Source of the DNA: Patescibacteria group bacterium
GTDB taxonomy: Bacteria > Patescibacteriota > WWE3 > UBA101185 > 2-01-FULL-41-18
Reading direction: 5' to 3'
NCBI GenBank assembly: GCA_038064575.1
Contig: JBBTST010000003.1
Location: forward strand, 6,751-70,750
DNA: 64,000 bases
Shown here: one piece after another, positions 37,678 to 60,555 of the stretch
How positions within the stretch are numbered: position 1 is the stretch's first letter
Layout of the letters: each line of letters begins with the position of its first letter
Notes under the pieces: model-generated
What the model was told of the DNA's origin: nothing
The model's input: only the letters and a program-made list of their open reading frames with translations
Database searches by the model: none
Translations under genes and position numbers: made by a program

Positions 37678-39535
37678 AAAAGCTTGTCCATAATACTAAA
37701 GTTCCGGGGGAGCGTAAATTAAACACTGACTTAAACTTGTAACCGTCAAATGATTTTGAGGAATAATTACTTGAAGAGAGTACAACGCTTGTTGTGAAAC
37801 CTGTTCCATCATCCTTCATGGAAATGTTGTTGACCTTGCCAACAGTCTTTATCCCAAGGTCTGAAAGCTTATCTTTAACCCTATCAAAGGACCAGCCTCC
37901 TTTGGAAGGGGCAGAAAGATACTTGTTGTAAGAGGAGTTGTTTTCAGATAGTAGATACGCATTAAAGATATCAGCAACTTCACTCTCAGTCATCCAGGCA
38001 CTTCCTGAAGTTTTATTTGTTCCCCAGGCTTTGTGAAACCAGGGAGATTTACCATAATTAGGCCCATCATATGCACAATCAAACAAATCCCCCGAACATT
38101 TTGCATCTCTGATCCCCTTTGTCCAAGGCCTGTCGGAGCCCCATACCTGCCCTGAGGTTCTTGTGTACCCGCCTGATGTTGAGGCGTACCACGCTGTTAT
38201 AGGCATACCATTCCATTTCGCAACCACCCCACAGGTATCTTCAACGGCCTTTTTCCAATTTCCTGTTTTCTTACGATTGTTATAAACTTGGCACGATTGC
38301 GTAGTACAAATGGAAACGGGCTTTGAGCGCTTTTTTAAGCTGCCTTTTTCCCAATAATATTGGGTGTAGTTAAGGGCGTAGGTACGGGCTAAAACCACCT
38401 GTGCCTTGAGAGCTTCCTGACCGCCGTTTGAGCCCCAAGATTCGGGCATTTCCGCAATACCCATAAGATAAGTATTCTCCAAATTAAGGCTTCCATAACC
38501 TGTGACAGAAATGGTTTTTCCTTTATCACAAGAGCCGCTAATATCCACATCTTTAAAATAAGCTTTAATAATATCTTTGTAATTTTGGCCGGCCTTTGAT
38601 CTGCCGTACATGCCATATTGATTTGCCCCCACTCTGTGGGGATACCCATAAGTAAAAAATGCAAATGCGGGTTTGAACGATGGGTTGGGAAGAGTAGAGG
38701 AGGATTGTTCGCTATCTCCTATAGTTGTGGATTCAGTTGTTGCACCAAACTTTTCCCTCAATAGCTCCTGCTGCCTTGCTGACAGATCTGAAAGGGAAGA
38801 ATTAACTTTTTTTATCTCATCAGCAAGATCATCAATATCTTCAACCGTTTCTTCTTTTTGATTTGCTAAATTTTGCTTCAGTAAAACAAGCTTGGCTCTT
38901 TGGCTGTCAAAAGAGTTTTTGAGATCCTCTGCTGCTTTTTTATCTTTTTCATACTGAAAAATGTCTTTGTTTAAAAGCTCAATTGTTGTGAGAGTGTTTT
39001 TATTAAGAGTTTTTTGGGCAACATATGACTGGCTTGCAAACCTAAAGCCTGCCTCATCAGTTTGTGAATTGGAGGCGGTTGGAGAGGGCAGAAGGGAAAT
39101 AAGCAGGGAAAACTCCATATCCCTAAGAGAATTACTTTTGTAATAATTTCTTAAAATTTTATTTCTTAAAATTATTTTTGAATCCAGCGTACGCCTGGTT
39201 TCATCAAGGCTCACATTTATATCTTTAAGTTTTTCCTCCATAGCAATAATATCTGCCAAAACTTCTTTAATGTCCGATTCTGTGGCAGAAAGGTCTGTTG
39301 TTAGCTTATTAAGCTTTGCTTCCAGAGAAGATTTGTCTGAAGTAAGGTCATCAAGCTTTTTTGAGAGCTTGTCTTTCTTTTTTTCTATATCGGAAAGCTC
39401 ATCTGCCCTTGCAGGAGGCAGTACTGAAGAAACAAAAATAAGAAAAAAATAAAGTATTGCCGCTAAAAAGGAAGCAAAAATTAGTGCAAAAAAAGTGTTG
39501 GTTTTATGTTTAACTAAGAGTCCTAAATAAGGCAT
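37655..39535 (-). CDS. SpoIID/LytB-domain protein with N-terminal TM and coiled-coil
   Basis: C-terminal segment EALKAQVVLARTYALNY matches the SpoIID/LytB signature. N-terminal 250 aa are coiled-coil. Confidence 0.6.
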   Translation of the reverse strand: MPYLGLLVKHKTNTFFALIFASFLAAILYFFLIFVSSVLPPARADELSDIEKKKDKLSKKLDDLTSDKSSLEAKLNKLTTDLSATESDIKEVLADIIAMEEKLKDINVSLDETRRTLDSKIILRNKILRNYYKSNSLRDMEFSLLISLLPSPTASNSQTDEAGFRFASQSYVAQKTLNKNTLTTIELLNKDIFQYEKDKKAAEDLKNSFDSQRAKLVLLKQNLANQKEETVEDIDDLADEIKKVNSSLSDLSARQQELLREKFGATTESTTIGDSEQSSSTLPNPSFKPAFAFFTYGYPHRVGANQYGMYGRSKAGQNYKDIIKAYFKDVDISGSCDKGKTISVTGYGSLNLENTYLMGIAEMPESWGSNGGQEALKAQVVLARTYALNYTQYYWEKGSLKKRSKPVSICTTQSCQVYNNRKKTGNWKKAVEDTCGVVAKWNGMPITAWYASTSGGYTRTSGQVWGSDRPWTKGIRDAKCSGDLFDCAYDGPNYGKSPWFHKAWGTNKTSGSAWMTESEVADIFNAYLLSENNSSYNKYLSAPSKGGWSFDRVKDKLSDLGIKTVGKVNNISMKDDGTGFTTSVVLSSSNYSSKSFDGYKFKSVFNLRSPGTLVLWTSFYDIFIKK

Positions 39536-39633
39536 TAGAGTAGATTATACCATTGACTGCTTGACAGGCTTTTCTATTAATAAGATACTTTAACAGTAGT
39601 AATTCTTTCTGTTTAACTAAAAAGGAGGTGCAC

Positions 39634-39954
39634 ATGGCTTACGCTATTAATATTACGTCTAATAACCCGCTTTCCAACACGGGGATTAAAAGCTTGGCAG
39701 ATCTTTTTAATCTTATTATCAATATTGTAATGGGTATCGGCGTGGCGTTAACCGTCATCTTCTTGATACTTGGGGGTATCAAATATATTACAAGCCAGGG
39801 GGATCAAAAGAACACACAGCAAGCAAGGGAATGGTTAACTAACGCTGTCATTGGATTTATTGTTGTATTAGGAGCATTTGTTATAAGACAGGTTGTAGCA
39901 GGAGTACTCCAGGCAAATGTAAATGTTGCCGAGCAGTCTTTGCAACAAGAGTAG
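39634..39954 (+). CDS. VirB2/TrbC-like T4SS pilin-family protein (two TM hairpin)
   Basis: Two hydrophobic helices separated by the loop ITSQGDQKNTQQAREWLTNAV, which is shared with three paralogs. AGGAGG RBS 5 nt upstream. ATG 39634 chosen over the track GTG. Confidence 0.5.
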   Translation: MAYAINITSNNPLSNTGIKSLADLFNLIINIVMGIGVALTVIFLILGGIKYITSQGDQKNTQQAREWLTNAVIGFIVVLGAFVIRQVVAGVLQANVNVAEQSLQQE

Positions 39955-40059
39955 TTCTCCTAGATAAGAAATAATTAAGGCGCGGGTTAAACCCCGCGCT
40001 TTTTGGTTGGGGTTGGCGGTTGACGCACATACAATCTGCCATATATAGTTACTCCATAT

Positions 40060-40950
40060 ATGAGATATAAAATATCTGTTTTATCCTCACTTGCGTTCTT
40101 GACACTGACAATCATATTTATTGCACTTCCTTTGAGGGCATGGGCAGTTCATTGTTTAAATGCTTTGTCTTGCGACATAGAAGGAGATCTTATTACATGT
40201 GCAGACCCAACATCCGTTTGTCTCACAGATGCAACAAACCCTTGCGGAATTTGTGTTGAGTGTGTTGATAACACAACATGTGTATCCGGAACTTCATGTA
40301 ATCTCACAACTCACACCTGTGACTCTAATCCTTGTGTTGCAGATAATGAGATTTGTCTTACCGGAGATACTTGTTGTAGCAGCACGTTCTCTTGCCAAAC
40401 TGCACAAGTTGCCCCTCCAATAAAAAGGTGTATCAGTAATACCCCTCCCGTTTCCGATTGCTCAGGGGGGAACGTTGCCTGTGATTCTTCCGGTACGTGC
40501 AATAACTGCCTAAAACCTTGGGAATACACTTGTTCCAGTGCTAACAAATGCGTCAAAGAGAAAACATGGCGCTGTAATCCTAGTACTACTCCATGGAGTT
40601 GTGAAGAAGTTGATAGTAGCAGTTATTACGCCACGCAGGCTCTCTGTTCCGCAGCGTGTGTATATACACCGCCTGTAGGTCCCGGAGTGCTTGACCCCAG
40701 CGCCAACTTTCCTGAACCGGATAATCCACAGGGCTTGATATCTGCCATTATTATAATCTTAATGCCAATTGTTATAGTTCTTGGACTTCTAAGAGCTGCC
40801 CAGGGAGGTTTGATGATACTCACAAGTCAAGGTAACGAGCAGCAGCTAACAGAAGGGAAAGAGATAATAACCTCAGCCGTAGTAGGCATAATATTTGCGA
40901 TTACAGGGCTTGGTATCCTAAGGTTTGTTTTAAACACTTTTGCAAAGTAA
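40060..40950 (+). CDS. secreted cysteine-rich domain fused to C-terminal VirB2-like pilin module
   Basis: Signal peptide, then about 200 aa with roughly 36 Cys and many Thr/Ser. C-terminal 80 aa match the two-TM pilin pattern (LTSQGNEQQLTEGKEIITSAVVGI). Confidence 0.5.
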   Translation: MRYKISVLSSLAFLTLTIIFIALPLRAWAVHCLNALSCDIEGDLITCADPTSVCLTDATNPCGICVECVDNTTCVSGTSCNLTTHTCDSNPCVADNEICLTGDTCCSSTFSCQTAQVAPPIKRCISNTPPVSDCSGGNVACDSSGTCNNCLKPWEYTCSSANKCVKEKTWRCNPSTTPWSCEEVDSSSYYATQALCSAACVYTPPVGPGVLDPSANFPEPDNPQGLISAIIIILMPIVIVLGLLRAAQGGLMILTSQGNEQQLTEGKEIITSAVVGIIFAITGLGILRFVLNTFAK

Positions 40951-40998
40951 GACCCTTTATAGCCTAATGAAAACACATGTAGTATTATTCATAGCAGT

Positions 40999-41331
40999 AT
41001 GCCTTTTGATTTTGTAAATACTATTATTGATGATCCAAATGTAAATCCAACAGGAGGCGCTTTTTCAACTGTTAGTAGCTTTTTAAATCTAGCCCTTGGA
41101 GTTCTTATGGGAATCAGCATAGCCTTAGGAACTGTTGCCATAATACTTGCCGGCATTCAGTATATAATGAGTGAAGGGGATGCCAAGGCAATAGGCACTG
41201 CCAAACGCTATCTCACCACAGCAATTCTGGCAATAGTTGTAGCTCTGCTAGCGTTCACTTTCAAGCTGATTATATTAAACATTCTGGGATCTAGCAGTCC
41301 AGATCTTGAGAATAATGTGCCGGGATTTTAA
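40999..41331 (+). CDS. VirB2/TrbC-like pilin-family protein
   Basis: Two TM helices flanking the loop IMSEGDAKAIGTAKRYLTTAI. Paralog of 39634 and 41334. Confidence 0.5.
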   Translation: MPFDFVNTIIDDPNVNPTGGAFSTVSSFLNLALGVLMGISIALGTVAIILAGIQYIMSEGDAKAIGTAKRYLTTAILAIVVALLAFTFKLIILNILGSSSPDLENNVPGF

Positions 41332-41333
41332 AT

Positions 41334-41768
41334 ATGCAAATTTTTAGAAGTGGTGTCAAAAAATTAAGCCTAAACCTGTTTTTGCTCCTATTTCTTTTTT
41401 TGGTATCTCAAAGAAGTGCAAATGCGGCATGCGAAAACTTTGGAGAACCAACTAAAGATCAGCCGCTAGATCAATTAGTTAATTTAATGTGCCCTGTGTT
41501 AAAAGCTTTAGATATAATAATACTCTCATCGGGAGGCATATTTGTTGCCTTAATTTTAATAGCCTCCATTAAGCTAAGCCTTTCCCAAGGAGACGCCAAA
41601 GCAATAGATGGTGCAAAACAAACAATTACCTGGGCAACAATAGGTTTTGTTACGGTAATAGGTCTTTATGTGGGTCTTGGGATATTATTGGGATATTTTG
41701 GAGTAAGCCCCAATGCGCTCTCATTTAGCACAGCTATTCAGGGGGTAGTAACATGGTTAAATCAATAA
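41334..41768 (+). CDS. VirB2/TrbC-like pilin-family protein with signal peptide
   Basis: Signal peptide, then the two-TM hairpin with loop LSQGDAKAIDGAKQTITWAT. Confidence 0.5.
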   Translation: MQIFRSGVKKLSLNLFLLLFLFLVSQRSANAACENFGEPTKDQPLDQLVNLMCPVLKALDIIILSSGGIFVALILIASIKLSLSQGDAKAIDGAKQTITWATIGFVTVIGLYVGLGILLGYFGVSPNALSFSTAIQGVVTWLNQ

Positions 41769-44700
41769 CAAAAGTAGTCTTTGCAATACCAATAATTCTA
41801 GTCTTGACTTTTACTTCCGGTAAAAGCGCTTCTGCTGCGGTAGAAAAGTGGGGACCTAATCTCAAAGACTCTCCATCAATGATAGCTCCAGCAAGACAGG
41901 CATACTTGGGTTTGGGCGGGGATACAAATAACTGGGTTCCTTTTGAGATTATGATGTCCGCAGCAGGAATACCGGGAGATGTGGCGGGCACAAAACAGGC
42001 TATGCAGGAAATGTTGGACATTGCAAGAACCAATAAAATGATGCCTGTAGTCAGACTCACAACCAGACTCTGTTCAGGCGGGGTAAGTGGCTGGGAAAAA
42101 TTAACATTGGATTATGCAAGATATACTGCCCAAGCATTTAATTCTGTTGACGCTTCAGGATTTCCAGACACAATTCGCCTAGAGTGGGGAAACGAGGTAA
42201 ACCTTGGCAGGGAATGGGGAAACGAGATGCCAGACCCCGGCGAATATAGTAGCACCTACACATCATTCAAGGCACAACTTACAAACCCCAATATAAGCAC
42301 AATGCCTTCCTCAATAAATACATCCAACCCTGATGTCTTACCTCCTCAAGCTCCGGCAATGGATGCCATTAAATTTTATCAGGGTTTGTCAGGCACCACG
42401 GGTTCGGGACTTGCCTCACACCCTTATGAGACTGATGTGCCGGGTCCTGCTAGATACAGAATAACAGCTTGGGATTTTGATAATGACTATGCCAAAACAA
42501 CATCTCCTATAATTGTGAACGGTGGGGGTTTGTCACCTAATTTTGTGTATGGAGGCAGCAGGGTCAACTTTAATCAGCGCATTGACTACCTTAAAGCTTC
42601 TTTTCAAGGTAGTTCTTATTTGGGTGTACCCCCCTTAACCGGTGGTCCAGATGCAAAGTACCTCATGCCTGATCTTCAGGACGACCCAACGGCAGGTGGG
42701 GGAACCGATCAATTCCTTGTTATGGTGTATGGACCGGGGGGAACAACAACTCTTCCACTTGCAGGAGGAGGCTCCAGAGGAGGGGGTACATGCGAAGATA
42801 TTGAGGACACTAACACAGAGGTGCTTCCGGCGTGTACTCCAGAAGACCTTGAAATTGAGCCTGAAGAATTTACTCCAGCTACACTTAGGGGAACTGTAAC
42901 AAATTCTTATACAAACAATTTTGGAAAAAGAATAATTCCAAGTATGGCTACACCCCCACTAACAGGGGCTAAAATTGCTTGGGTAGAAACTTTTGCCAGA
43001 CCGGCCCCACCTCTTAAAAACCAATCCATCTGGGATGATCTTAACAAACCTGATGAGAATGAAGAAAAAAAGAAAAATGCTACATATAACTCAACAACCA
43101 TTCAAAATGTCAATGGCAAGTATCAATATGAACTTCAAATACCCAAAGACAAAACCTCCTACCTTATGGTTATCTGCGGAAACAAAGTGCTAGATGTATT
43201 TTCTGTTAACCCAAATGGAAACAGCAACGTTAAACTTGATTTAAGTTACGCTAAATTTATTGAGGGTTGCGGAGGAAGCAACGAGTGTTTAAGACTTAAA
43301 CCTGTAGGGGATGTGACAAAAGCGGGCTATTGTCCTTTTATATCAGGCACAGCTCCGGTAGCAGATGAGATGGTACCTGATAAAATAGTTCAAATCTCTC
43401 AGCAACTGGGAAAGTTTTCTCTAAGCTGCGTTAAAAACCTTTTGAGTTGTGTCAAAGTTGTCTGGGACACTACTTGGACTACACTAGGTGGTTTTGCAGG
43501 CTCACAAAAGCAAGATCAGGTCAAAGGTATAGCAAGAGATCATGCTTCTGACAAACAGGCTATAAGACAATCTTGGGGAGAAATTCCGTATGTAGATAAA
43601 GTAAGTTGTGAAGCTATAAAAGCCAACAATGAAAGGATGAGTCTAATTAGAAACATGCCTATAGGAGCAAATTTACTTGGCATGAGACCTGGTCTTTTGA
43701 CAGAAATTTGTATAAAAGCCAGAGAAAGGCAGGGGGCACTAATTGCTTGTCAAGGGACACCCCTATCAGGGATTTGCGCTCCGGGAGAGGTAGGTTGCAC
43801 AATGAAAGATTCAAAATACTTCCCGCTTTACATGTGCGCTTATGGCCTTGATGCCCCGGGGGTAATTTACAATGTGGCAGACTCCCCATTTGGAGCAATA
43901 AACTCCCCAGAGGGCGTTAGAGAACCAATAGTAGTTAATAACAACACGGGTAGCGTGAATCTGGAAAGCGATTACACTCCACACATCTGCGGTGGTCCGT
44001 ATCTGGACGAAGCTGATATAGGATGTTACGTAGGAGATCCCATCACAGAAAATAGAGACGATTGTCAAGGAGCCGCGTGCGACACACAGCCTACCGTTTA
44101 TGTTAGCGGACCAAACGGCGGAAACGCAGGCCCCGGCCCTGCCACATCCGTTGCAACCGTAGCAAGCATGTACACAAGACCCGGTGTGATTGGAGCAAAT
44201 GAGGCCGGAAAGATGATGAATATAGAGGATGCAGACCCAACACCTACCGCTGCACTTGATAGAACTATTTTTTCAGACAATCCTGTAAGAACATCCGCAT
44301 ATAGTGCTGTGATAAGGAGGTTAAAAATTCTGGGCAATGAGTGTCCATGTGATGGAGAACAGCTTAAGGTAAATAAGAAGTATGATGATGGTTTTGTTTG
44401 CACAAAGGGAGGATTAAGATTTAATATGATTATTGATTTTGGCGAGCTTATAGATGCTTTCTTAGCTAACTTATTGAAAGCTTTCAATGACTGTGCCCTG
44501 TTACCCACCCCAGAAGAAGTACAGGCTTGCCAAGATGCGGAGACAGAATATGAAGCATCGGCTGATTTGACTCCAACTTTTAAAGTGCCTTATGCGGCCC
44601 ATAAGGGAGCGCCTGCAGCAACAATTGCAGATGTAGTAAAAATGCCATATCACAAGCCTGTTCAAAAAATCGGTACTCTTGGTACGGTCAATACAGAGCT

Positions 44701-44848
44701 TGAAAGAAACAGAATCCCATGGACTGCCGCTTCCGGAGTTTCAGGGGAGGCTTTAAGAACCGGCGAGTTTGTGAGAAATATGTTTTGTATACCAAGAGAG
44801 GGAGTAAGTTGCGGGGTGGGAGGTCCGGGTATTGAAGAAACCCCCTAA
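41753..44848 (+). CDS. large secreted protein (1031 aa), possible N-terminal glycosidase-like domain
   Basis: Signal peptide (SASAA/VE). Translationally coupled to the upstream pilin gene by a 16-nt overlap. G/P/T-rich. LEWGNEVNLG resembles the GH-A NE(P) motif. Confidence 0.45.
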   Translation: MVKSITKVVFAIPIILVLTFTSGKSASAAVEKWGPNLKDSPSMIAPARQAYLGLGGDTNNWVPFEIMMSAAGIPGDVAGTKQAMQEMLDIARTNKMMPVVRLTTRLCSGGVSGWEKLTLDYARYTAQAFNSVDASGFPDTIRLEWGNEVNLGREWGNEMPDPGEYSSTYTSFKAQLTNPNISTMPSSINTSNPDVLPPQAPAMDAIKFYQGLSGTTGSGLASHPYETDVPGPARYRITAWDFDNDYAKTTSPIIVNGGGLSPNFVYGGSRVNFNQRIDYLKASFQGSSYLGVPPLTGGPDAKYLMPDLQDDPTAGGGTDQFLVMVYGPGGTTTLPLAGGGSRGGGTCEDIEDTNTEVLPACTPEDLEIEPEEFTPATLRGTVTNSYTNNFGKRIIPSMATPPLTGAKIAWVETFARPAPPLKNQSIWDDLNKPDENEEKKKNATYNSTTIQNVNGKYQYELQIPKDKTSYLMVICGNKVLDVFSVNPNGNSNVKLDLSYAKFIEGCGGSNECLRLKPVGDVTKAGYCPFISGTAPVADEMVPDKIVQISQQLGKFSLSCVKNLLSCVKVVWDTTWTTLGGFAGSQKQDQVKGIARDHASDKQAIRQSWGEIPYVDKVSCEAIKANNERMSLIRNMPIGANLLGMRPGLLTEICIKARERQGALIACQGTPLSGICAPGEVGCTMKDSKYFPLYMCAYGLDAPGVIYNVADSPFGAINSPEGVREPIVVNNNTGSVNLESDYTPHICGGPYLDEADIGCYVGDPITENRDDCQGAACDTQPTVYVSGPNGGNAGPGPATSVATVASMYTRPGVIGANEAGKMMNIEDADPTPTAALDRTIFSDNPVRTSAYSAVIRRLKILGNECPCDGEQLKVNKKYDDGFVCTKGGLRFNMIIDFGELIDAFLANLLKAFNDCALLPTPEEVQACQDAETEYEASADLTPTFKVPYAAHKGAPAATIADVVKMPYHKPVQKIGTLGTVNTELERNRIPWTAASGVSGEALRTGEFVRNMFCIPREGVSCGVGGPGIEETP

Positions 44849-45817: not shown

Positions 45818-48655
45818 TCATAAATTTAGCGTAGTCGGGCAAGAACCACCGGTGTTAATGGCAGGGCAAGCGAAAGAAGTGGCACAGGGGTTAACCTGCT
45901 TTGTTCTATCATTACTTCCAGATCTAATCTCAAAGTGCAAATGCGGTCCGGAAGAATAACCCGTAGAATCCACCTGGCCCAAAGTAGTACCTTTAGTAAC
46001 AACACTACCAACAGGAACGCTAAAACTCTTAAGATGTGCAAAGTACATATAATAGGGTAGGGCTGTTCCACCTGATTGAGCCTGTATTACTATTAACTGT
46101 CCAAAATTCCCAGCAGAACTTGCAAATACAACCTTTGCATCTCCATCATAAGGGGAGAGTACAAATGCACCAGTGGGAGCTGCAAGATCTATACCACCAT
46201 GTTTCACACAAACGCCCCCCACAGTCCTATCTTCCCCAAAACAAGACCAAGTCTGTCCGCTACCTCCAGGAAACACTGTTCCGTTGGTCTTTGAAAAGGG
46301 TACAGGCTGATTGGTACCTGAGGTTGTAGCACTGCAGGCAATTGCTTCCCCTCCCGGAGCAGTACCTGGACCTAAGACAGGTGTAGAAGTACCTCCCAAA
46401 CACTGAGGGGTCTGGCTAAACCAACTTTCTGTTCCCCAAATACCCACCAAAAGCCAAGGATTAACATTTTTGGCTTTGGCAACCTGTAAAACCTGAAGTA
46501 ATTTACCGGGAGGTGGGGAGAAACCCGAATAACTTACATTTAGTATGTTCGTCATGTAATCAGCAAGCTCTTCAGGAGTTTTCCCAAAGGAATTGTCAGT
46601 TGTCCATTTAAGCTGAGCGTTAGGCACTTCACAATCTCTCAATGCCTCTCTATAGTAAGCAAATATCCCATTTACGGCAGGGTCGGGTACGGCGCAGGTG
46701 CCCCCATTAAAGCATCGGGGAGATGTACCTGTGCACCTGTAGCCTGCATCCAAAGGTCTTGCGGTTTCGGGCGGCGGGGTAGCACAGGACCTCCCGGCAG
46801 GAGTCCCTATAGCAACATATTTATCATAAAATTTCACAAAAAGGTTGTACGCAAAAGGCAAGTTCCTGGTTTCATTGTCACAATAAGGACCGTACTCATC
46901 AACTAACCTCCAAAGAGGTCCGCTTGTATCGCTAGACAAAGTTGCTGCAGCACAATTAAGAGACGATTCAAAATCCGTAACTCCGGAACCAAAGCAGTTA
47001 AAATCATTACAGCTTGGAGTTGGAAGTTCTGTGCCACCACCAACACCTCCCGCAGTTTCACCATAAGGCTGTGTGCCTCCAAGAGGGGCCAACACAGTGT
47101 TAACAATAAAATACAAAGCCAGTATTAAAACTACAACCGTGAAACCTGTAATTCCAGCCACAAACTTAAAGATATTTGCCATCTCTTTGCCAAGCTCATC
47201 AAGAGCCTTACCAAGATCAAGCTTCATTGTGTGCCAAATTATGTTCCAAGCTTTTTCCCCAACATAAATCAAGGCAGCTGTTATAGCAGCAGGAAGAGTT
47301 CCAACACCACTAGCACCTGCAGCGGTTAAAGCTGAACTTACAAGAGACCTGATAGCAATTTTAATTGCACCACCGCTAACAAGGTTGATAAGCCCAGAAG
47401 CTTTACCACTTAACACTTGTGCAAGAGCTCCCAAGGTTCCATCCAGACCCTTGGCTACCTTGTCCATTAACGTCTGAAGCATTTTATTAATAGGAGAATT
47501 TTTGTTTCCAATTAAAATTCTTAAGCCCCCCCTAACAGGGTCCTGAACAAAACTTGCAAACTTAAAAGCAGGAGTCAAAAACTTAATCTTTGTTTTAATT
47601 TTGCTCCACATATAGAGCTGGAAAAACTTTCCTTCAGCAACAGCGTCCAGAAGTTCGTTGTATTCAAAAACTTTCTTTCTGTAATCTAACATTTGTGCAA
47701 AAGCCACAAGACGATTATCTCCAAGAGTGTCTCCAAGATCCTTTGATCCCATTGCTCTCTTCCAAATGGAGTCTATATCTTCGTTTCCCCTAGATTCTAT
47801 TGAACTTCTTACCTTTTCCATCTCCCCTGCAGAAAGCTTGTTTCCATCCGCATCAGTGTCCTTAACAAAAATCTTCTCCCCATCAACAGATTTGTAAGCA
47901 CCTGTTGAAAAAACTCTATCTAAATCTCGTTTTAAGGCTGTGACTTCAGGGGAAGCAGTACGAGGGTCATAAGTTTCATCGAGTTGCCTTTTAAGGGCAA
48001 GAGCAAATCTGGTTTGAACTACGTTAAATTTAACACCCCTTTTATCTGCCGAATTTCCAAAAACAACAAAATCTCTAACAGAAGCTGCAAATCTATCTGA
48101 GGATTCAAAAGCACCTTGAGTCGTGACCCCATATAAATCTTTAAAAACTGATGAGTGAAGACTCAAGGCCTTCTGCTCTTTAGTTGCAGTTATCAGAGGA
48201 TTTAACATTGGGTCCCAAATACCTTTTAATTCGGCTTGGGCAGTTAAATCCTTAAAACCCATGACCGCTGTGAACCAATCCTGGGCGGTCTCAGCAACAA
48301 ATTCTTCTAAGCTTTTCTTCTTGAGCTTCTCTGGATCAAGATTCAAACCAATACCAGCAGCCCCTGGAAGCTCTGCGTATTCCTCTTCTACACTACCTAA
48401 TTCTCCGCTAGCTACTCTAGCACCGGCGTCTCTAATCTTACCTCTGATCACAAAAGAAGAAGCAACAAAATCTTTCTCAATTAGCTTTGTAAGAGTGCCA
48501 GGAAGACCCAGTGCAACAGAGTCAAAGGAAACTACAGATGCAAGTTCTCTTTGAAATTCATCAGATTCATATCTTTTGGGCCTACCCCCTCTTTTTTTCT
48601 TTTTAACAGGGCGGCTGCCTGGATAATACCCAGGATAAAAAATTGGCGCTGCCAT
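45818..48655 (-). CDS. membrane-spanning peptidoglycan hydrolase with C-terminal M23 peptidase domain
   Basis: C-terminal M23/LytM motifs HxxxD-like and GPHLHFEIR. Central TM (FVAGITGFTVVVLILALYFIV). Segment WLLVGIWGTESWF is reminiscent of lysozyme/transglycosylase active sites. About 500-aa cytoplasmic N-domain. Confidence 0.7.
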   Translation of the reverse strand: MAAPIFYPGYYPGSRPVKKKKRGGRPKRYESDEFQRELASVVSFDSVALGLPGTLTKLIEKDFVASSFVIRGKIRDAGARVASGELGSVEEEYAELPGAAGIGLNLDPEKLKKKSLEEFVAETAQDWFTAVMGFKDLTAQAELKGIWDPMLNPLITATKEQKALSLHSSVFKDLYGVTTQGAFESSDRFAASVRDFVVFGNSADKRGVKFNVVQTRFALALKRQLDETYDPRTASPEVTALKRDLDRVFSTGAYKSVDGEKIFVKDTDADGNKLSAGEMEKVRSSIESRGNEDIDSIWKRAMGSKDLGDTLGDNRLVAFAQMLDYRKKVFEYNELLDAVAEGKFFQLYMWSKIKTKIKFLTPAFKFASFVQDPVRGGLRILIGNKNSPINKMLQTLMDKVAKGLDGTLGALAQVLSGKASGLINLVSGGAIKIAIRSLVSSALTAAGASGVGTLPAAITAALIYVGEKAWNIIWHTMKLDLGKALDELGKEMANIFKFVAGITGFTVVVLILALYFIVNTVLAPLGGTQPYGETAGGVGGGTELPTPSCNDFNCFGSGVTDFESSLNCAAATLSSDTSGPLWRLVDEYGPYCDNETRNLPFAYNLFVKFYDKYVAIGTPAGRSCATPPPETARPLDAGYRCTGTSPRCFNGGTCAVPDPAVNGIFAYYREALRDCEVPNAQLKWTTDNSFGKTPEELADYMTNILNVSYSGFSPPPGKLLQVLQVAKAKNVNPWLLVGIWGTESWFSQTPQCLGGTSTPVLGPGTAPGGEAIACSATTSGTNQPVPFSKTNGTVFPGGSGQTWSCFGEDRTVGGVCVKHGGIDLAAPTGAFVLSPYDGDAKVVFASSAGNFGQLIVIQAQSGGTALPYYMYFAHLKSFSVPVGSVVTKGTTLGQVDSTGYSSGPHLHFEIRSGSNDRTKQVNPCATSFACPAINTGGSCPTTLNL

Positions 48656-48763: not shown

Positions 48764-50050
48764 ATGAATAAAAAAACAAGCTCAAATCAAACAGTTCTTC
48801 GTGCTATAAGTGTTATTTCTGCTCTGGTTCTTGTTTTTTCAACTCAAGTCAGAACCTCATACGCTGGTGGTAATTGGGTCTGGGATCAAGCAGTGGGTTT
48901 TGTGTTGGGAGATAAAAACGATTTGCAGACACTCGTTACCGGAACAGCCATCGGTGGCATTGCCGGGGCTGGTTATATATTAGTAACGGGGTGTACTTAT
49001 GACCAAATGATTGATAAAGCAAAAGGAGTAGCCTCAGAGTGTGATCCTACTCTTCAAATTGTAAACAGTAAATCAAGCATGTTAGCTTTTGCCGTAGGTG
49101 CTATGGACTCGGCAATTGAGGCACCTCCTGTAATGAATCTTGCATACTATTTTAATAGTATGAAGTCCGATTCGGTGTTATTTAGGCAAGCTTACGCTGC
49201 ACCTTCCCCAGCATTTCAGGCTGTTATTGATATGTGGAAAGCCATGAGGAATCTAGCTTATGGTCTTCTTGCCGCTTTTGTTTTAGTAGTAGCGTTTATG
49301 ATAACCATGCGTTCTAAAATAGATCCTCAAACGGTTGTAACTGCACAGTCTGCAATTCCCAGAATTGTGATAAGTGCCGTTCTAATAACAATATCTTATG
49401 CACTAGGTTCCTTGTTTGATCAGATGATAGGTAGGGGGTGGAATAGCCCCTTAGTTGGAGTTGCGTCCTGGTTAGCAGGTCCTGGGGGTGTTACAGGACA
49501 GGGAATAATTTATGTGATACAAGGGGTGTGGCCTCCTATATGCAGCAGTTACCAAGCAGGTAATCTGACTGGGGCAATGCAGTGTCTTCTGGCAATATTA
49601 GGAAACGTAAGTAATGCCGCTGTATCCGGTGGTCTCGGTCTTTTCATTCTGTTAGAAATAATATTGGCACTTGTTCTTCTGGTAATAATGCTTATTGTCT
49701 TCTTAACAAGTTATGTCAAAGTCATTGCAAGGACAATTATCTCCCCAATGATATTTGCTGTCGCGGCGATTCCAGGACAAGAACACAGAATAAAAGATTG
49801 GTTCAAAGACATGCTTGCGGACACGTTAGCCCTACCCGTAATAGTGTTTCTCATGGCTTTTGGACTGGTAATCTTTTTCAAGACGGCAGCCGCAGCTGCA
49901 GCAGATCCAAACACAAATGTGGCAGCAGGCTTTTTAAGCGATACTTTAGCTGTTGTTGCAGCACACATGATTCTTATGGCAACGTGGGTAATGGCTATAA
50001 AGGCCCCGGGATTGGTTAGAGCTGCAATTCAAGGACCAAAGACTAGATAA
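48764..50050 (+). CDS. VirB6/TrbL-like polytopic membrane protein
   Basis: Signal peptide, roughly 150-aa extracytoplasmic domain, then at least 5 TM helices and an Ala-rich tail. Position and architecture fit VirB6. Confidence 0.45.
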   Translation: MNKKTSSNQTVLRAISVISALVLVFSTQVRTSYAGGNWVWDQAVGFVLGDKNDLQTLVTGTAIGGIAGAGYILVTGCTYDQMIDKAKGVASECDPTLQIVNSKSSMLAFAVGAMDSAIEAPPVMNLAYYFNSMKSDSVLFRQAYAAPSPAFQAVIDMWKAMRNLAYGLLAAFVLVVAFMITMRSKIDPQTVVTAQSAIPRIVISAVLITISYALGSLFDQMIGRGWNSPLVGVASWLAGPGGVTGQGIIYVIQGVWPPICSSYQAGNLTGAMQCLLAILGNVSNAAVSGGLGLFILLEIILALVLLVIMLIVFLTSYVKVIARTIISPMIFAVAAIPGQEHRIKDWFKDMLADTLALPVIVFLMAFGLVIFFKTAAAAAADPNTNVAAGFLSDTLAVVAAHMILMATWVMAIKAPGLVRAAIQGPKTR

Positions 50051-50655: not shown

Positions 50656-53328
50656 ATGCCCTTAAAAGAAACTAGCGGACTATCTAATAAACAACACGCA
50701 GTACCACAAAACATAATGCAGGTGGAGTTCAAGATAATAGGGGACTTGACCATGCGCCAGTTCTTTTACCTGCTTATTGCAGCTATTTTTGCCTTTGGAG
50801 CTATCAAAAGTGGGCTTCCTTCCTATGTTGCCTGGCCCCTTGGCATTGTGGCAGCCCTTGCCGGCGTAGCCATAGCTTTTGTCCCTATTCAAGATAGAGG
50901 AATGGATCAATGGGTAGCTTTTTTCTTCCAGGCAATTTACCAACCAACCCTGAGGGTCTGGAGAAAAGAAACACTTATCCCACAATATTTTCTATATCAA
51001 AGCGCGGCATTGCTTAAATCTGAAATGTTAACAATAGCCCCAACGGCAAGCAGAAGAAAACTGGAGGAGTATCTTGAAAGAGCTTCTGGCGATCTTAAGA
51101 AAAAAGATTATCTTGATGAAAAAGAAGAGGAGTATATCAAAAAAGTAAGGGCTGCTTTTGAACCCTCTTTAGCTAATGCTAGACCCACTACACCTCAAAC
51201 CATACTTAACACTCAAGCAACAGCCGTTACGGCACCACCCCAAGTAACAACTCAATTCAGACCACAAAGTTTACCTCAGACACACCCAAGCGTTAGAAGC
51301 ATCCCTATTACGCCCACTATAGCACCCTCACCTAAAATACCTATATACCAGGCACCTAAGTTCACACCACCTTCACCACAACCCTCTATCCCACAGGCTC
51401 CCAAACCTCAAGAGGTTAATAAAGCTTCAGGGGCTCAGGAGAAAGTAGCACAACAGCCTCAGCAGCAGAGCGTGCCTCAAGCTAGTCAAAAACCACCCTC
51501 ACCAAAAGTGCAAACCCCTGAAGTCTTAAAGCTTCCGGATGTTAAAAAGGAGGAAGTAAAAATAATAACTCCAAAAACTTTAGACGCTTTAACCGTTTCA
51601 ACCCCCCCGCAAACTTTTGTTAAACCCCCTGTTCAGATGCAAACGCAGCAGCAACCACAACCTAAACAAGTTGTGGCCAAACCATTCGAACCCCCACAAG
51701 TTATAGAACCAAAAGTAATAGAAGTAGCAAAAGAAGTTGGGAGGGAAGAAGCTCCTATCTTTGTGGATATAACTCCCAAGAGTGAGGAAAAACCGGAAGT
51801 GGTGGAAAACATAATTGAGCAGGATAAGGCAAACCTTGTCAGGACAGAACTCGCACCCGGTAAAGAATCCACACCCAAAGAGCCCCCAGCACCAGCGCTA
51901 GCACCCGCACCCGCACCGTTCACGTCTGGCCCACTAACTCAAGAAAAAGCGTCTCTAACACAGTCTGAAACCGTTGCAATCCCAGCTAAAGAACCAATTC
52001 AGGAACCAAAAGTTCAGGAACAAAAAAAAGAGGAGCCCCATGAACAGGAGCAGGAACAGGAACAAGAAAGAGCGGAAATAATCAAGCCTTCAAGATCCCA
52101 GCTGAGGCAAAACTTTCCAATTACAGCAAGAATTGGTTCTTTTAAACCAAAGTCTCAGGGCACCACCTTAACCCCTGCCGGCATTACAGGCAGAAGATTT
52201 ACAAACCTGACTCCAACCCAGGGTGAGATTGTTTTACCAATCAGAGGAGAAAGAATTTTAAGAATGTCAGGCGAGCCCGAACCTCCTAAAAGCCAGGAAG
52301 ACATGAAAAGAAAGGAAAAATTAGACCAACTCAACGCTTTGGTTGAAAAACTGAAAGTAGATCAAAAAAGCAGTGCTTCCCAGGCAAGACTTTCAATACC
52401 CCCGCTTAATATATCTGCTCTGACACAGCAAGATCAAAAGAAAGAAGAAAAAATAGAGGTTGGGAACCCGTTTAAAGAAGTGGCTGTTACAGAAGTAGAA
52501 AAGAAAACTGCAGAGGGAGTAGGAGTACCTGCTCAACAAACCCCCCCGCAAACCTCTCAAACACCAAAAAAAGGCAGCATGTACCTGCCGCCGGAAAGAC
52601 TTATGTGGACAGGTCCGGAACCAACAGCTTCTCTCAAAAAAGAGGTTCCAAAAGATGAAAAAGTTGAAATAAAATATGATATCCCCGGCAAAAAAGCAAC
52701 AGATGAAGAAATAGAAAAGCACCTGATTGAAGCAGATTCCAAACTAACTAAGGAGATTGAAGCGCTAAACATGAGCATGAAAGATTCGTCAAAAACGGAG
52801 GCTGAAAGAAAAGCCATCCAGGATCAAATAAAACGTGTAGAAACGGAAAGAGTTGAAGCGCAAAAAGTGATAACAGGCCTTGAAACCAAAGTTAAAGAGC
52901 TTGAACAAAAACTCACAGAAACCACCTCTCCACAAGTTGTTGTTCAAAAAGTGGTGGAAAAAGTACAAGTACCTGTAATTCATGACAGCAAAGAAGATAC
53001 GCAACTCAAACAGCCTAAGGCTCCAGTGCTAGCCAAAGTTCCTACAATAACAACTCTGCCTAATTCAATAAACGGGGTTGTAAAAGACAACAACGGCAAA
53101 CTTGTGGAAGGCGCAGTAGTTATGATTAAAGATCCAAGAGGAGACGTTGTCAGAGCGCTAAGAACCAACAAACTGGGCCAATTCTTCATCACAACTGCAG
53201 TAGCAAACGGTAGTTACATAGTTGAGGTTTCATTTGAGAAAGATAATATTGCCTTAAACTTTGATTCTTCCCTGATACAAACCAAAGGAGAGGTATTACC
53301 TCCAATTGAATTTACTGGTAAGATTTGA
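50656..53328 (+). CDS. VirB3/PrgI-like two-TM N-domain fused to Pro/Gln-rich linker, coiled-coil and C-terminal CarboxypepD_reg-like domain
   Basis: N-terminal 110 aa with two TM helices (MRQFFYLLIAAIFAFGAI…VAWPLGIVAALAGVAIAF). Roughly 400-aa P/Q/A-rich low-complexity region. C-terminal beta-sandwich motif (GVVKDNNGKLVEGAVVMIKDPRGD…). Confidence 0.45.
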   Translation: MPLKETSGLSNKQHAVPQNIMQVEFKIIGDLTMRQFFYLLIAAIFAFGAIKSGLPSYVAWPLGIVAALAGVAIAFVPIQDRGMDQWVAFFFQAIYQPTLRVWRKETLIPQYFLYQSAALLKSEMLTIAPTASRRKLEEYLERASGDLKKKDYLDEKEEEYIKKVRAAFEPSLANARPTTPQTILNTQATAVTAPPQVTTQFRPQSLPQTHPSVRSIPITPTIAPSPKIPIYQAPKFTPPSPQPSIPQAPKPQEVNKASGAQEKVAQQPQQQSVPQASQKPPSPKVQTPEVLKLPDVKKEEVKIITPKTLDALTVSTPPQTFVKPPVQMQTQQQPQPKQVVAKPFEPPQVIEPKVIEVAKEVGREEAPIFVDITPKSEEKPEVVENIIEQDKANLVRTELAPGKESTPKEPPAPALAPAPAPFTSGPLTQEKASLTQSETVAIPAKEPIQEPKVQEQKKEEPHEQEQEQEQERAEIIKPSRSQLRQNFPITARIGSFKPKSQGTTLTPAGITGRRFTNLTPTQGEIVLPIRGERILRMSGEPEPPKSQEDMKRKEKLDQLNALVEKLKVDQKSSASQARLSIPPLNISALTQQDQKKEEKIEVGNPFKEVAVTEVEKKTAEGVGVPAQQTPPQTSQTPKKGSMYLPPERLMWTGPEPTASLKKEVPKDEKVEIKYDIPGKKATDEEIEKHLIEADSKLTKEIEALNMSMKDSSKTEAERKAIQDQIKRVETERVEAQKVITGLETKVKELEQKLTETTSPQVVVQKVVEKVQVPVIHDSKEDTQLKQPKAPVLAKVPTITTLPNSINGVVKDNNGKLVEGAVVMIKDPRGDVVRALRTNKLGQFFITTAVANGSYIVEVSFEKDNIALNFDSSLIQTKGEVLPPIEFTGKI

Positions 53329-53335: not shown

Positions 53336-54037
53336 ATGGAAGACATTAAATTCACAACACAAGAGCATCTTGATATTGAGACCATAACAAACGACCTTGT
53401 AGTTTTGAAAAACGGTGCTGCAGTCCTTATTATCAGAACCAATGCCGTAAATTTTGATCTGTTATCTGAGATTGAACAGGATGCAATTATTGCAGCTTTT
53501 TCAGGCCTTCTAAACTCTCTAAACTTTCCGGTTCAGATAATTGTCAGAAGCAAAAAGCTAGACATTACCAATTATCTTGAAAAAGTTAAGGCTATAGAAA
53601 ACAGAATCAAGGACCCTCTTCTTAAAGTTCAGGCGGAGGCCTACAGAAAATTTGTGCAGGAGCTAATCAAAAGAAATGAGGTTTTGGATAAGAGTTTCTA
53701 TGTGTCCATTCCTTCGGGAGGCACAGCTTCTACACCAACAGGCAGTCCTTTTGACTTCCTCTCAGCGCTAACGGGTACAAAAAAAGCCACCAAAAGAGTG
53801 AATGTTGACGTGCCAAAACTGCTTAAAACGGCAACAAATGAACTTTACCCCAAAAGAGACACTCTAACTAGGGAGTTTGCAAGGATTAACATTAAAGCAA
53901 AACAATTAACAACTCAGGAGCTAGTGGAACTGTTTTTTGATATTTATAATCCGGTTTCCCTGCATGATCAAAGAATGAGAACAAACGCGGATGATTACAG
54001 AATTCCAATAGTAGAACCTGCAATACTTGAAGAGTAG
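53336..54037 (+). CDS. hypothetical cytoplasmic protein co-transcribed with VirB4
   Basis: 233 aa with no TM. Lies 18 nt upstream of virB4. Confidence 0.4.
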   Translation: MEDIKFTTQEHLDIETITNDLVVLKNGAAVLIIRTNAVNFDLLSEIEQDAIIAAFSGLLNSLNFPVQIIVRSKKLDITNYLEKVKAIENRIKDPLLKVQAEAYRKFVQELIKRNEVLDKSFYVSIPSGGTASTPTGSPFDFLSALTGTKKATKRVNVDVPKLLKTATNELYPKRDTLTREFARINIKAKQLTTQELVELFFDIYNPVSLHDQRMRTNADDYRIPIVEPAILEE

Positions 54038-56217: not shown

Positions 56218-57351
56218 TTAATACTGCAAAGGCATTATCAGATAAGTATGGTTATCCCTGCCAACAGGCTTTAAAACTCCGGGCATTCCGGGACCTATTT
56301 TATCAGAGCAGGAAAACACAAAACCATCCGCTTTAATGTTTGACAGGGCATCAAGTATATATTTTGAATTAAAAGCAACTTCAATATCTCCACCGTCAAT
56401 TTTTGCATCAACACTACTCCTGTTTTCCCCAGCCTCAGTGCTTGAAGAGGATATATACAAAACCCCATCTTCTCCGCTTACTTTAAATTTGACCACACTT
56501 GTTGCATTTTCTTTGGCAAAAACATTTGCAAGTCTTAAGCCATTGGTAAAATCCTTAGTTAACATCTCTACTCTAATATTTGTTAGGGCAGGATCCGGAA
56601 TGAGTTTTTTGTATTCGGGAAAAGCCCCATCCAAAAGTCTTGAGGAAATCAGCAGATCTGAAGATTTAAAAACAGCAAGATTTCCGTCTTTATTTAAGGA
56701 GATTTCTAAAGGCTCCTTGAGAGAGCTAACCAACCTGGCAACTTCCAGTATGATTTTTGCAGGTATGATAGCAGAAAAGTTTTCTTTCACCGTTTCGTTT
56801 TCTGCAAGCTCAACAACCCTCTCCGCTAGTCTAAACCCATCAACTCCTACCATAAAAAGCTTGCCCCCTTCTGAATAAACAAGGATACCTGTAAGAACGG
56901 GTCTTCCCTCATCCATGGCTGCAGCAAAAGCAACCTCAGACACCACCTCACTAAAAATCTTGGGATCCATAGTCAAATGCACCTCATCCGGAGTATCCGG
57001 AAGGGAAGGAAATTCAGAGGCATCAAGCCCATTAAATTTGGAAGAGGCTTTGTCACACATAATTTTCAAAGAAAAATCATCAGATTCACCACTTACTGTC
57101 TGTGGGGGAAGATTAGAAATAAACTCTGAAAGCAGTCTTGCCGGTATCGTAACACTTCCTTCTTCTTCAACAGAAGCACCAATCCAAGTAGTAATAGAAG
57201 TTTCAAGATTGGTAGCTGAAAGCTTAAGTCTGCCGCCCTCTGTTGAAAGTAATACGTTAGATAAAACGGGCATGGGACCTTTATTGGAAACAGCTTTAGA
57301 AACTGTTGTCAGGGCACGGGACAAGTTTTCTTGAAGACAGGTAAATTTCAT
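56218..57351 (-). CDS. dnaN: DNA polymerase III beta sliding clamp
   Basis: 377 aa, canonical N-terminus (MKFTCLQENLSRAL…PVLSNVLL) and three-domain length. Confidence 0.9.
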   Translation of the reverse strand: MKFTCLQENLSRALTTVSKAVSNKGPMPVLSNVLLSTEGGRLKLSATNLETSITTWIGASVEEEGSVTIPARLLSEFISNLPPQTVSGESDDFSLKIMCDKASSKFNGLDASEFPSLPDTPDEVHLTMDPKIFSEVVSEVAFAAAMDEGRPVLTGILVYSEGGKLFMVGVDGFRLAERVVELAENETVKENFSAIIPAKIILEVARLVSSLKEPLEISLNKDGNLAVFKSSDLLISSRLLDGAFPEYKKLIPDPALTNIRVEMLTKDFTNGLRLANVFAKENATSVVKFKVSGEDGVLYISSSSTEAGENRSSVDAKIDGGDIEVAFNSKYILDALSNIKADGFVFSCSDKIGPGMPGVLKPVGRDNHTYLIMPLQY

Positions 57352-57386
57352 GTTTTCTAAAAGGATTAACTACCAATCCTTTAACT

Positions 57387-57848
57387 TTATTCTTTAGGTT
57401 TTATTACAACTCTTCTACTAAAACCATCTCCAATACTATCTGACGCAATTCCCTCATATTTGGAGGCTTCCAAATGAACAATACGCCTTTCATAAGAAAC
57501 CATTGGGGAAAGTTCTACAGGCTTTAAGGTAAATTTGACTCTATCAACAGCCTTTTTAACTATGTCTTTAATCTTTTCTTCTCTTTCCCTCTTGTAACCG
57601 TTGACATCAACAGAAAGATGCACCCATTTATCAGCTTTTTTGAGAATCATTAAACCAAGAATTGTCTGGAGAGAAGAAAGACCTTCTCCATGATACCCAA
57701 TCACAACCCCAAGGTCATCGCCGGAAAGGGAAACATGAAAACTATCCTCCTCAGTAATATTTTTAAAAACATCTACGGCAGCAACAACTCCAATAAAATA
57801 AAGAATTTTTTCTATCGTTTCTACAATTAATTTTTCTAAATCTGACAT
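57387..57848 (-). CDS. jag: Jag/KhpB-like RNA-binding protein (KH + R3H)
   Basis: R3H-like segment ERRIVHLEA and KH-like GVVIGYHGEGL. Conserved position downstream of yidC. Confidence 0.65.
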   Translation of the reverse strand: MSDLEKLIVETIEKILYFIGVVAAVDVFKNITEEDSFHVSLSGDDLGVVIGYHGEGLSSLQTILGLMILKKADKWVHLSVDVNGYKREREEKIKDIVKKAVDRVKFTLKPVELSPMVSYERRIVHLEASKYEGIASDSIGDGFSRRVVIKPKE

Positions 57849-57849
57849 A

Positions 57850-58638: not shown

Positions 58639-58641
58639 AAA

Positions 58642-59176: not shown

Positions 59177-59185
59177 GTAATAAGC

Positions 59186-59338
59186 TTACTTTGATTTTTT
59201 TGCAACCACAACTCTAACTCTTCCTTTTTGTTTTCTTCTTTTAATTATGTTTCTACCGCCCGGGGTTGAATTTCTGGCCATGAACCCATGTTTTCTGATT
59301 CTTTTTCTCTTTTTAGGCTGATATGTTCTTTTTGGCAT
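59186..59338 (-). CDS. rpmH: 50S ribosomal protein L34
   Basis: Hand-translated: [50 protein letters not shown]. 50 aa. Not in the ORF track. Confidence 0.85.
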
Positions 59339-60508: not shown

Positions 60509-60555
60509 CTTTTTAAATTGTGTGAGATTTGCAAAACTTCTGCCCCACAGTAACT

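Follow-up and report, generated by a model that had tools for sequence, protein, structure and literature searches.

Four orthologous classes of pilin-like genes, one fused to an exchangeable cysteine-rich ectodomain, in a type IV secretion locus of a Patescibacteria bacterium

Results

We analyzed a window of 64,000 nucleotides from a Patescibacteria group bacterium (GenBank assembly GCA_038064575.1, contig JBBTST010000003.1, positions 6,751 to 70,750 of the forward strand), and within it an array of four genes at window positions 39634–41768, which we term pil1, pil2cys, pil3, and pil4. The four products share a homologous hairpin of two hydrophobic helices, have a type IV secretion system (T4SS) pilin family as their best match, and represent four orthologous classes (A to D, in gene order) that recur in the same order in other genomes. 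In the class B protein, pil2cys, the hairpin is preceded by a cysteine-rich ectodomain, which is replaced between relatives and leaves the hairpin conserved. We read the four genes as the VirB2-like pilin set of a chromosomal, origin-proximal T4SS of a WWE3-like Patescibacteria, in which class A would be the bulk subunit, classes C and D minor subunits, and class B the subunit displaying a host-contact ectodomain; we give this reading a probability of about 60%.

Four tandem paralogs share one hairpin module

All four genes are plus-strand open reading frames (ORFs), and the ORF list placed each of them where a preliminary description of this DNA had put it. Pil1 (39634–39954, plus strand), the class A pilin, has 106 amino acids (aa), no signal peptide, and no cysteine. 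Pil2cys (40060–40950, plus strand) has 296 aa and combines a class B pilin with an ectodomain. The class C pilin, pil3 (40999–41331, plus strand), has 110 aa and no signal peptide, and the class D pilin, pil4 (41334–41768, plus strand), has 144 aa with a signal-peptide-like N-terminus, a cysteine pair, and a C-terminal tail. A Kyte-Doolittle scan revealed a polar loop between two hydrophobic helices in each protein. The two sequence motifs proposed earlier for the module are present in all four with small variants: from pil1 to pil4 the first reads ITSQGD, LTSQGN, IMSEGD, and SLSQGD, in slight deviation from the earlier pattern, and the second reads AREWLTNAVIG, GKEIITSAVVG, AKRYLTTAILA, and AKQTITWATIG.

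The four sequences were aligned pairwise with the Smith-Waterman algorithm. All six pairs scored above every one of 1000 whole-sequence shuffles (z 8.8–19.6), and all six also scored above every one of 1000 shuffles within 12-residue blocks, which preserve the hydrophobic block pattern (z 5.7–13.2). Since all pairs beat both types of shuffles, the similarity of the four modules is beyond what chance or hydrophobic composition would give. The four tandem paralogs of the preliminary description, with a shared module of two transmembrane (TM) helices, are thus confirmed. Identity within the array is low, at 27–33%. No other pilin module was found when two module profiles were compared with all window ORFs of at least 60 aa.

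The four genes define conserved orthologous classes

Next, the array was compared with syntenic loci of WWE3, Saccharibacteria, and unclassified Patescibacteria, in which the same gene set lies beside a SpoIID gene (loci are cited by number, L001 onwards). All-against-all BLAST of these loci yielded four orthogroups, A, B, C, and D. The classes are reciprocal best hits in L001, L004, L005, L007, L008, and L010, and their order is conserved. The best hits of each window paralog are its positional orthologs elsewhere, not its neighbours in the array. Class A is the most conserved, with orthologs of pil1 being 59–65% identical; orthologs of pil3 are 44–47% identical (L004, L001) and orthologs of pil4 37–44%. 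Class D always has a signal peptide, a cysteine pair before helix 1, and a C-terminal tail. In pil4 the signal-peptide-like start carries ANA at residues 29–31 and is followed by the two cysteines, a pair that also occurs in L001, L004, L005, L007, and L008. Pil1 and pil3 have no such start and no such cysteine pair. The C and D genes are adjacent or overlapping in every locus. One recent duplicate was seen, a second class A gene in L007 (73% identical). In L004, a HEPN/nucleotidyltransferase pair of the toxin-antitoxin type (4913–5613) is inserted between the class A and class B genes.

By these comparisons, the paralogs are ancient and differentiated, not recent duplicates. Because the classes are old, ordered, and syntenic, fixed major and minor roles are favoured over antigenic variation. 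The preliminary description had offered both options. Major and minor pilin roles fit the four orthogroups and their conserved order across genomes, and antigenic variation by paralog turnover was not borne out: each paralog is closer to its orthologs than to its neighbours, and the six pilins of the cultivated relative Southlakia epibionticum, SEML1_0014–0019, were each scored as essential by transposon sequencing (Tn-seq; PMC10633639, supplement).

Class B pilins carry exchangeable ectodomains

Pil2cys begins with a signal-peptide-like segment (40060–40146, plus strand; residues 1–29) that starts with MRYK and has a charged n-region, a hydrophobic core, and AWA at positions −3 to −1 (residues 27–29), as judged only by eye and by hydropathy. 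It is followed by an ectodomain with a Pro-rich linker (40147–40734, plus strand; residues 30–225), about 196 aa that are rich in cysteine and in serine and threonine (44 of the 196 residues are Ser or Thr). The class B hairpin occupies 40735–40950 on the plus strand (residues 226–296 and the stop codon), and the protein ends directly after the second helix; the class consensus is ...GGY.I.TSQGDE.K..EGKEI.TSAV.G...TF. All 26 cysteines of the protein lie within the ectodomain, at residues 32–200, allowing for 13 disulfides. Among their spacings CxxC occurs three times, and CC and CxxxC once each. The earlier proposal of a signal-peptide protein of this kind therefore stands in its architecture, namely a fusion with a domain of about 200 aa, a signal-peptide-like start, a C-terminal module, and CxxC spacing; the number of cysteines, put at about 36, is 26, and the CxC spacing is absent.

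The ectodomain matched no Pfam and no NCBIfam family, and a phmmer search of Protein Data Bank (PDB) sequences returned nothing better than E 1.6. An AlphaFold2 model from 10 sequences presents a beta-rich ectodomain with low confidence (predicted local distance difference test, pLDDT, 63.5). The top Foldseek matches of this model were knottin toxins, none of them significant (5irx_E, E 0.29; 3s3x_D, E 1.9). The cysteine spacing of residues 92–124, C-x6-C-x5-CC-x5-C-x11-C, is knottin-like and serves as a lead only; no significant Pfam, PDB, or Foldseek match to a knottin or inhibitor cystine knot was obtained for the ectodomain.

Fusions of this kind are found in related genomes, where the preliminary description had proposed to look for them. 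A word-indexed homolog search with pil2cys recovered only pil2cys itself, and the same kind of search with an alignment of fusion proteins recovered two proteins only, probably because low-complexity words swamped the candidates. An exhaustive phmmer search identified 601 relatives at E ≤1e-3. Among the 149 listed representatives of these, 41 have an N-terminal extension of at least 100 aa, and 36 of the 41 long extensions (36/149 representatives) contain at least six cysteines. The cysteine count is even in 33 of the 36 Cys-rich extensions, as expected for disulfide pairing.

Between relatives, the ectodomain is fast-changing or exchanged. In L004, the closest relative, the class B hairpin shares 50% identity with the hairpin of pil2cys, with an alignment score of 207 versus 30 ± 5.5 in shuffles, and the ectodomains have no similarity (27 versus 31 ± 5 in shuffles). 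At the same position, L004 encodes a segment rich in Gly, Ser, and Thr, which has two cysteines and a poly-Gly linker. The length of the N-terminal extension in class B proteins varies across loci, from about 40 to 702 aa. Those of L001 and L005 have about 40–55 aa including the signal peptide, and one cysteine. Longer ones were found in L007 (246 aa, 16 Cys), L008 (WWE3 RIFCSPHIGHO2_01_FULL_40_23; 275 aa, 30 Cys), L010 (Saccharibacteria; 218 aa, 13 Cys), L015 (Dojkabacteria; 242 aa, 18 Cys), and L009 (702 aa, 18 Cys). In an ectodomain-only alignment, the window domain was related to those of four proteins from the phmmer search, P0047 (z 8.3), P0185, P0041, and P0039; the other fusion ectodomains resembled it no better than expected from composition. 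A single cysteine-rich domain family was therefore rejected: the ectodomains of only four relatives beat composition, which implies several ectodomain types on one anchor. The picture suggested by these alignments is one conserved anchor bearing several fast-changing or exchanged ectodomains.

The phmmer relatives also include concatenated modules. At least two hairpin modules per polypeptide were present in 73 of the 149 listed representatives, with up to 6–7 modules (e.g., P0037, 606 aa, and P0074, 555 aa), and in P0044, P0048, P0053, P0058, and P0060 a Cys-rich N-terminal domain precedes two modules. Topology would permit such concatenated pilins if both termini are outside, and we came across no account of them. 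L001 (9621–9980), L002 (8315–8674), and L003 (9621–9980) each have a 119-aa ORF directly upstream of the called pilin; it encodes a module of the class B type with a short N-terminal extension and is absent from the called genes. Tandem pilin-module genes, 2–9 in number, also occur in L012, L016, L017, L018, and L019, which are contigs from metagenome-assembled genomes (MAGs) labelled Gammaproteobacteria, Spirochaetia, or Pseudomonadales; a Cys-rich fusion heads the array in L012 (305 aa), L016 (227 aa), and L017 (280 aa). These contigs are either mis-binned Patescibacteria or evidence of a wider distribution.

The hairpins match a curated family of T4SS pilins

The top Pfam match of all four proteins is PF18895 (T4SS_pilin). 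Pil1 matches it with 45.5 bits, above the curated gathering cut-off of 26.6; pil2cys (18.3 bits), pil3 (19.8 bits), and pil4 (17.8 bits) each score below that cut-off, and their membership is supported indirectly by a significant similarity of each to pil1. PF18895 is also matched by all 35 sequences in the alignment of the pil1 family, and precomputed PF18895 matches exist for orthologs in L005 (genes of 105 and 147 aa, weak) and L007 (322 aa, and 106 aa, faint). Pil1 is named "pilin" by NCBI (in a "Patescibacteria group bacterium" MAG), and the nearest named relatives belong to candidate division WWE3. These matches, together with the T4SS locus, agree with the pilin-type hairpin of the preliminary description.

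Weak matches to the TrbC family (PF04956) were obtained for 9 of the 35 pil1-family members at E <0.1 (best 1.7e-4), and pil3 matched this TrbC/VirB2 family with 17.7 bits (E 0.004), below the cut-off of 27.9. The label "pilin" rests on the curated family, these TrbC cross-matches, and the gene neighbourhood. The AlphaFold2 model of pil1 is a helical hairpin (residues 21–53 and 58–94, pLDDT 79.6), for which fold searches against solved structures are non-specific. All four proteins also matched NF045849 of NCBIfam (pilin-like conjugal transfer protein) with 36.5, 17.9, 25.6, and 18.0 bits, all below its cut-off of 40.

Class A pilins (window 39634–39700; L001 10001–10339; L005 8001–8333; L007 7571–8357) start with a short leader ending in [V/A]-[Y/H]-A, often with Q next and then ..TDP.., as in MLKLIKQAHAQ...TDPLG. 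This leader resembles the AxA-Q cleavage site and GGTDP of Agrobacterium-type VirB2; the hydrophobic core is absent. No upstream start codon for pil1 is present in the window. Either a vestigial signal peptide or a short leader that undergoes processing could explain the class A leader.

Putative expression signals fit pil1 as the candidate bulk subunit

An AGGAGG Shine-Dalgarno sequence (39623–39628, plus strand) lies 5 nt ahead of the pil1 ATG. None of the other three genes has a ribosome-binding site as strong, and pil1 is the only one of the four with a strong Shine-Dalgarno. Upstream of pil1, in the divergent intergenic region, a consensus scan identified a promoter-like site, TTGACA-17-GATACT (39561–39589, plus strand; 10/12 consensus matches). 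A second promoter-like site, TTGACG-18-TATAGT (40020–40049, plus strand; 10/12), lies just upstream of pil2cys. Between the two genes, directly after pil1, the sequence, RNA folding, and a stem scan revealed an intrinsic-terminator-like hairpin, GCGCGGG-UUAAAC-CCCGCGC followed by UUUUU (39980–40004, plus strand), which may act as a terminator or attenuator. Class A is the most conserved class, and pil1 combines the best ribosome-binding site with a promoter-like site and a terminator-like hairpin of its own, which makes it the candidate for the abundant (major) subunit, a role that the expression cues fit and do not prove.

The array lies in an origin-proximal T4SS locus

The surroundings of the array are of the Patescibacteria T4SS type: genes for SpoIID, M23, PrgI, TrsD-like, and VirB4 proteins lie within about 16 kb. 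Divergent from pil1 is the gene of a SpoIID-domain protein (37655–39535, minus strand; PF08486, E 3e-14), the same neighbour as in L001–L007. On the other side, a gene for a secreted protein of 1031 aa with 26 cysteines (41753–44848, plus strand) is probably co-transcribed with pil4, since its first 16 nt overlap the end of pil4. Its product had no Pfam or NCBIfam match; it is homologous to a protein of 931 aa that occupies the equivalent position in L004 (E 5e-64), and L008 has a 632-aa ORF there. The window protein and its L004 homolog have an EWGNE motif in common, and where L004 reads IIITEFGL the window protein reads IIVNGGGL; by eye, the 1031-aa protein might contain a glycosidase-like domain with a lost catalytic Glu.

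Further downstream, a 945-aa protein with a C-terminal M23 peptidase (45818–48655, minus strand; PF01551, E 3e-21), matching in position the genes of about 1067 aa in L001, L005, and L007, is a candidate cell-wall hydrolase of the T4SS. A polytopic membrane protein of 428 aa with at least six hydrophobic segments (48764–50050, plus strand) had no family match; it is syntenic with a gene of 454–474 aa in L001, L005, and L007 and is, by position and topology only, a VirB6-like candidate. The PrgI (VirB3-like) domain protein (50656–53328, plus strand; PF12666, E 5e-9; CarboxypepD_reg, E 7e-8) has a long C-terminal extension: the PrgI domain covers only residues 16–98 of 890 aa, a CarboxypepD_reg-like domain lies near the C-terminus, and the syntenic counterparts in other loci have 490–698 aa. 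A TrsD-like protein resembling the N-terminal part of VirB4 (53336–54037, plus strand; NF041427 TrsD, E 7e-8, and NF045975, E 1e-8, both below cut-off) follows, and the genes at this position in L001 and L007 are PF26593 TraC-like. The VirB4-type ATPase (54055–56199, plus strand; PF19044 TraG P-loop, E 3.5e-29, AAA_10, CagE_TrbE_VirB) is encoded 12.3 kb downstream of the array.

The T4SS locus lies in the replication-origin region, since it abuts dnaN, jag/KhpB-like, yidC, and dnaA genes (56218–61911). The remaining window holds housekeeping genes (mutS/L, metG, rpoD, dnaG, ksgA, smpB). No relaxase or coupling-protein domain was identified among the window ORFs scanned.

Discussion

The following mechanism is compatible with the data. 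Pil2cys would be exported via Sec, and signal peptide cleavage would leave the N-termini of pil2cys and pil4 outside. Helix 1 would run inward, the conserved S-Q/E-G-D/N ... A-K/R loop would be cytoplasmic, and helix 2 would return outward. Being homologs of pil2cys and pil4, pil1 and pil3 should share this topology with both termini out, which is that of assembled VirB2-type pilins. The VirB4/TrsD/PrgI machinery, aided by the SpoIID and M23 wall hydrolases, may then pull the hairpins out of the membrane and build a short pilus, filament, or conduit from them, with class A as the bulk. Pil3 and pil4 would be specialised minor subunits, and the cysteine pair of pil4 would be capable of forming a disulfide. 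The ectodomain of pil2cys, with up to 13 disulfides, would be tethered outside to the hairpin N-terminus by the Pro-rich linker. Subunits that all bore a 196-aa domain would be unlikely to pack, and class B is therefore expected to be incorporated sparsely or terminally, with its ectodomain displayed for contact with the host surface. Replacement of the ectodomain on a retained class B hairpin is what is expected of a specificity module, and an adhesin or tip role of class B, as envisaged in the preliminary description, is plausible on this pattern.

A more specific idea, which we advance tentatively and hold to be rather less probable than its opposite, is that class B pilins are the host-specificity determinants of the Patescibacteria T4SS, with a VirB2-type hairpin as the scaffold on which binding domains, exchangeable and rich in disulfides, are displayed at a monoderm T4SS pilus or contact site. 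If this is true, swapping the ectodomain (Cys-rich types, a Gly/Ser/Thr-rich beta domain, almost none) would retarget the epibiont to other host surfaces.

Several points weigh against the pilin-set reading. Pili have not been observed for any T4SS of Patescibacteria, and monoderm T4SSs are generally without them (PMC12857230, PMC10633639). Three of the four proteins, pil2cys, pil3, and pil4, individually fall under the cut-offs of both Pfam and NCBIfam. Sequence comparison gave no significant homology to classical TrbC/VirB2: in hhalign, the pil1 family aligned with eight annotated VirB2/TrbC proteins from plasmids helix to helix in register, with P = 0.054 and a probability of 1%, and a pil1-family profile run against PDB sequences found no pilin, only chance matches at E ≥0.05. 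The ectodomain has a low-confidence model and, among solved structures, no significant structural or sequence relative, so that the model gives no indication of what it might bind. The promoter and terminator calls are no more than matches to a consensus, the class B census loci were retrieved with the class B pattern, which biases their frequencies upwards, and Tn-seq essentiality of small operon genes may include polar effects.

The rival that survives best holds that there is no pilus. The hairpins would be membrane-resident parts of the T4SS, for example lining or gating a VirB6/VirB4 channel, and pil2cys a hairpin-anchored surface protein whose Cys-rich domain is held at the cell surface or wall. 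The usual lack of pili in monoderm T4SSs speaks for it, with no pilus observed for a Patescibacteria T4SS, as does the origin of the nearest NCBIfam model in integrative and conjugative elements (ICEs) of wall-less Mycoplasma. The many relatives that string 2–7 hairpins on one polypeptide would likewise suit a membrane-embedded oligomer. On the other hand, the family is curated as T4SS pilin and cross-matches TrbC weakly, one highly conserved class with several specialised ones resembles a set of major and minor pilins, and the predicted outward termini correspond to the topology of assembled VirB2-type subunits. We regard the membrane-resident arrangement as possible, if somewhat unlikely.

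An improbable alternative is that the paralogs are interchangeable variants of one pilin that vary its exposed surface, as proposed for Bartonella and Anaplasma. Such antigenic or functional variation was suggested for Patescibacteria arrays by a 2025 survey (PMC12102498), and the low identity within the array as well as the recent class A duplicate in L007 would agree with it. The orthology data oppose it, since best hits are positional orthologs instead of neighbours. The classes moreover differ in signal peptide, cysteine pair, tails, and ectodomain and keep their order; the six S. epibionticum pilins are individually scored as essential; and most of the variation lies in the ectodomain of class B instead of the set of paralogs.

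Finally, holin-like or other small two-TM proteins, unrelated to secretion and releasing the SpoIID and M23 hydrolases, would account for two-TM hairpins beside two peptidoglycan hydrolase genes, but this most improbable reading is effectively refuted by the absence of any holin family from the Pfam matches of all four proteins at E up to 1 (holins being the example of a non-pilin family that the preliminary description had named), by best matches to T4SS pilin families in two libraries, by an arrangement with VirB4/PrgI/TrsD that is conserved across loci, and by two members whose signal peptides are predicted to be cleaved and whose termini are predicted to face outward, which sets them apart from class II holins.

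Should the VirB2-like pilin set form a pilus, it would be the first such T4SS in a monoderm (PMC12857230). In the single species examined so far, epibiotic growth requires the Patescibacteria T4SS, the role of which has been described as completely unknown (PMC11665869). The four classes are concrete candidates for studying how ultrasmall bacteria recognise and tap their hosts. Among them, the class B ectodomain is a candidate that can be tested for a part in host recognition by this secretion system, and, being swappable and disulfide-rich, a natural target for binding assays, antibodies, and nanobodies.

Comparison with known systems

With the classical TrbC/VirB2/TraA pilins (PF04956) the window proteins have in common a small two-helix hairpin with a short polar loop, genes for VirB3 and VirB4 homologs in the same locus, the cross-matches of pil3 and 9 of the 35 family members, and the in-register hhalign alignment. 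They differ in that pil1 and pil3 are missing the long signal peptide of VirB2, and the organism here is a monoderm. We know of no classical VirB2 with an N-terminal ectodomain of about 200 aa. The Mbov_0395 family of Mycoplasma ICEs (NF045849), which comes from monoderm conjugation systems and is encoded beside a VirB4, is matched by all four proteins over nearly the full length of its 80-position model; this model is an equivalog for the Mycoplasma proteins, and with scores below its cut-off the four are not members. This match may be a hint that monoderm systems of the Tenericutes type already include a pilin-like hairpin. Monoderm (MPF-FATA) T4SSs have been described as being without VirB2 homologs, and Patescibacteria may have co-opted theirs from elsewhere (PMC12102498).

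A functional analogy, and no more than that, can be drawn to specialised subunits of other pili. Such minor pilins and tip adhesins include the minor pilins with added domains of type IV pili and VirB5 of the T4SS pili of Gram-negative bacteria. As in those systems, an abundant conserved subunit would be accompanied by a few specialised ones, and one of these would bear an additional exposed domain with a presumed role in contact. There is no relationship between the protein families or the assembly machines, and no VirB5 homolog was noted in the locus. Bartonella and Anaplasma have several divergent virB2 copies in tandem, as in the array described here, and these have been read as antigenic variants (cited in PMC12102498); the window paralogs differ from them in being old, ordered, and architecturally distinct.

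The closest counterparts are the published arrays of Patescibacteria. Pilin arrays were first noted in Saccharibacteria in 2018, with the array of TM7x (bioRxiv 10.1101/258137), and the array of S. epibionticum was reported to be essential (Wang et al. 2023, PMC10633639). A survey described 441 arrays of 2–11 pilin genes with an average identity of 25% (Quinonero-Coronel et al. 2025, PMC12102498), and characterised the Patescibacteria T4SS as chromosomal, origin-proximal, relaxase-less, and MPF-FATA-like, with VirB2-like pilins. The four window genes come under its definition of an array (2–11 pilin genes in tandem or one gene apart, VirB4 in the assembly and mostly close by, low identity). 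They also have in common with the published arrays tandem PF18895 genes of low mutual identity (about 25–33%) and a chromosomal MPF-FATA-like T4SS with PrgI and VirB4 near dnaA and dnaN. In the array of S. epibionticum, the module of one member starts at residue 115. The descriptions searched contain no division into conserved orthologous classes and no mention of a class with large exchangeable Cys-rich N-terminal ectodomains; nor did we find any description of ectodomain-fused or Cys-rich T4SS pilins in Patescibacteria, which, with an incomplete literature collection, is absence of evidence only. As far as we found, the class structure and the exchangeable Cys-rich class B ectodomain are thus undescribed, and the tandem array itself is a further example of the published kind.

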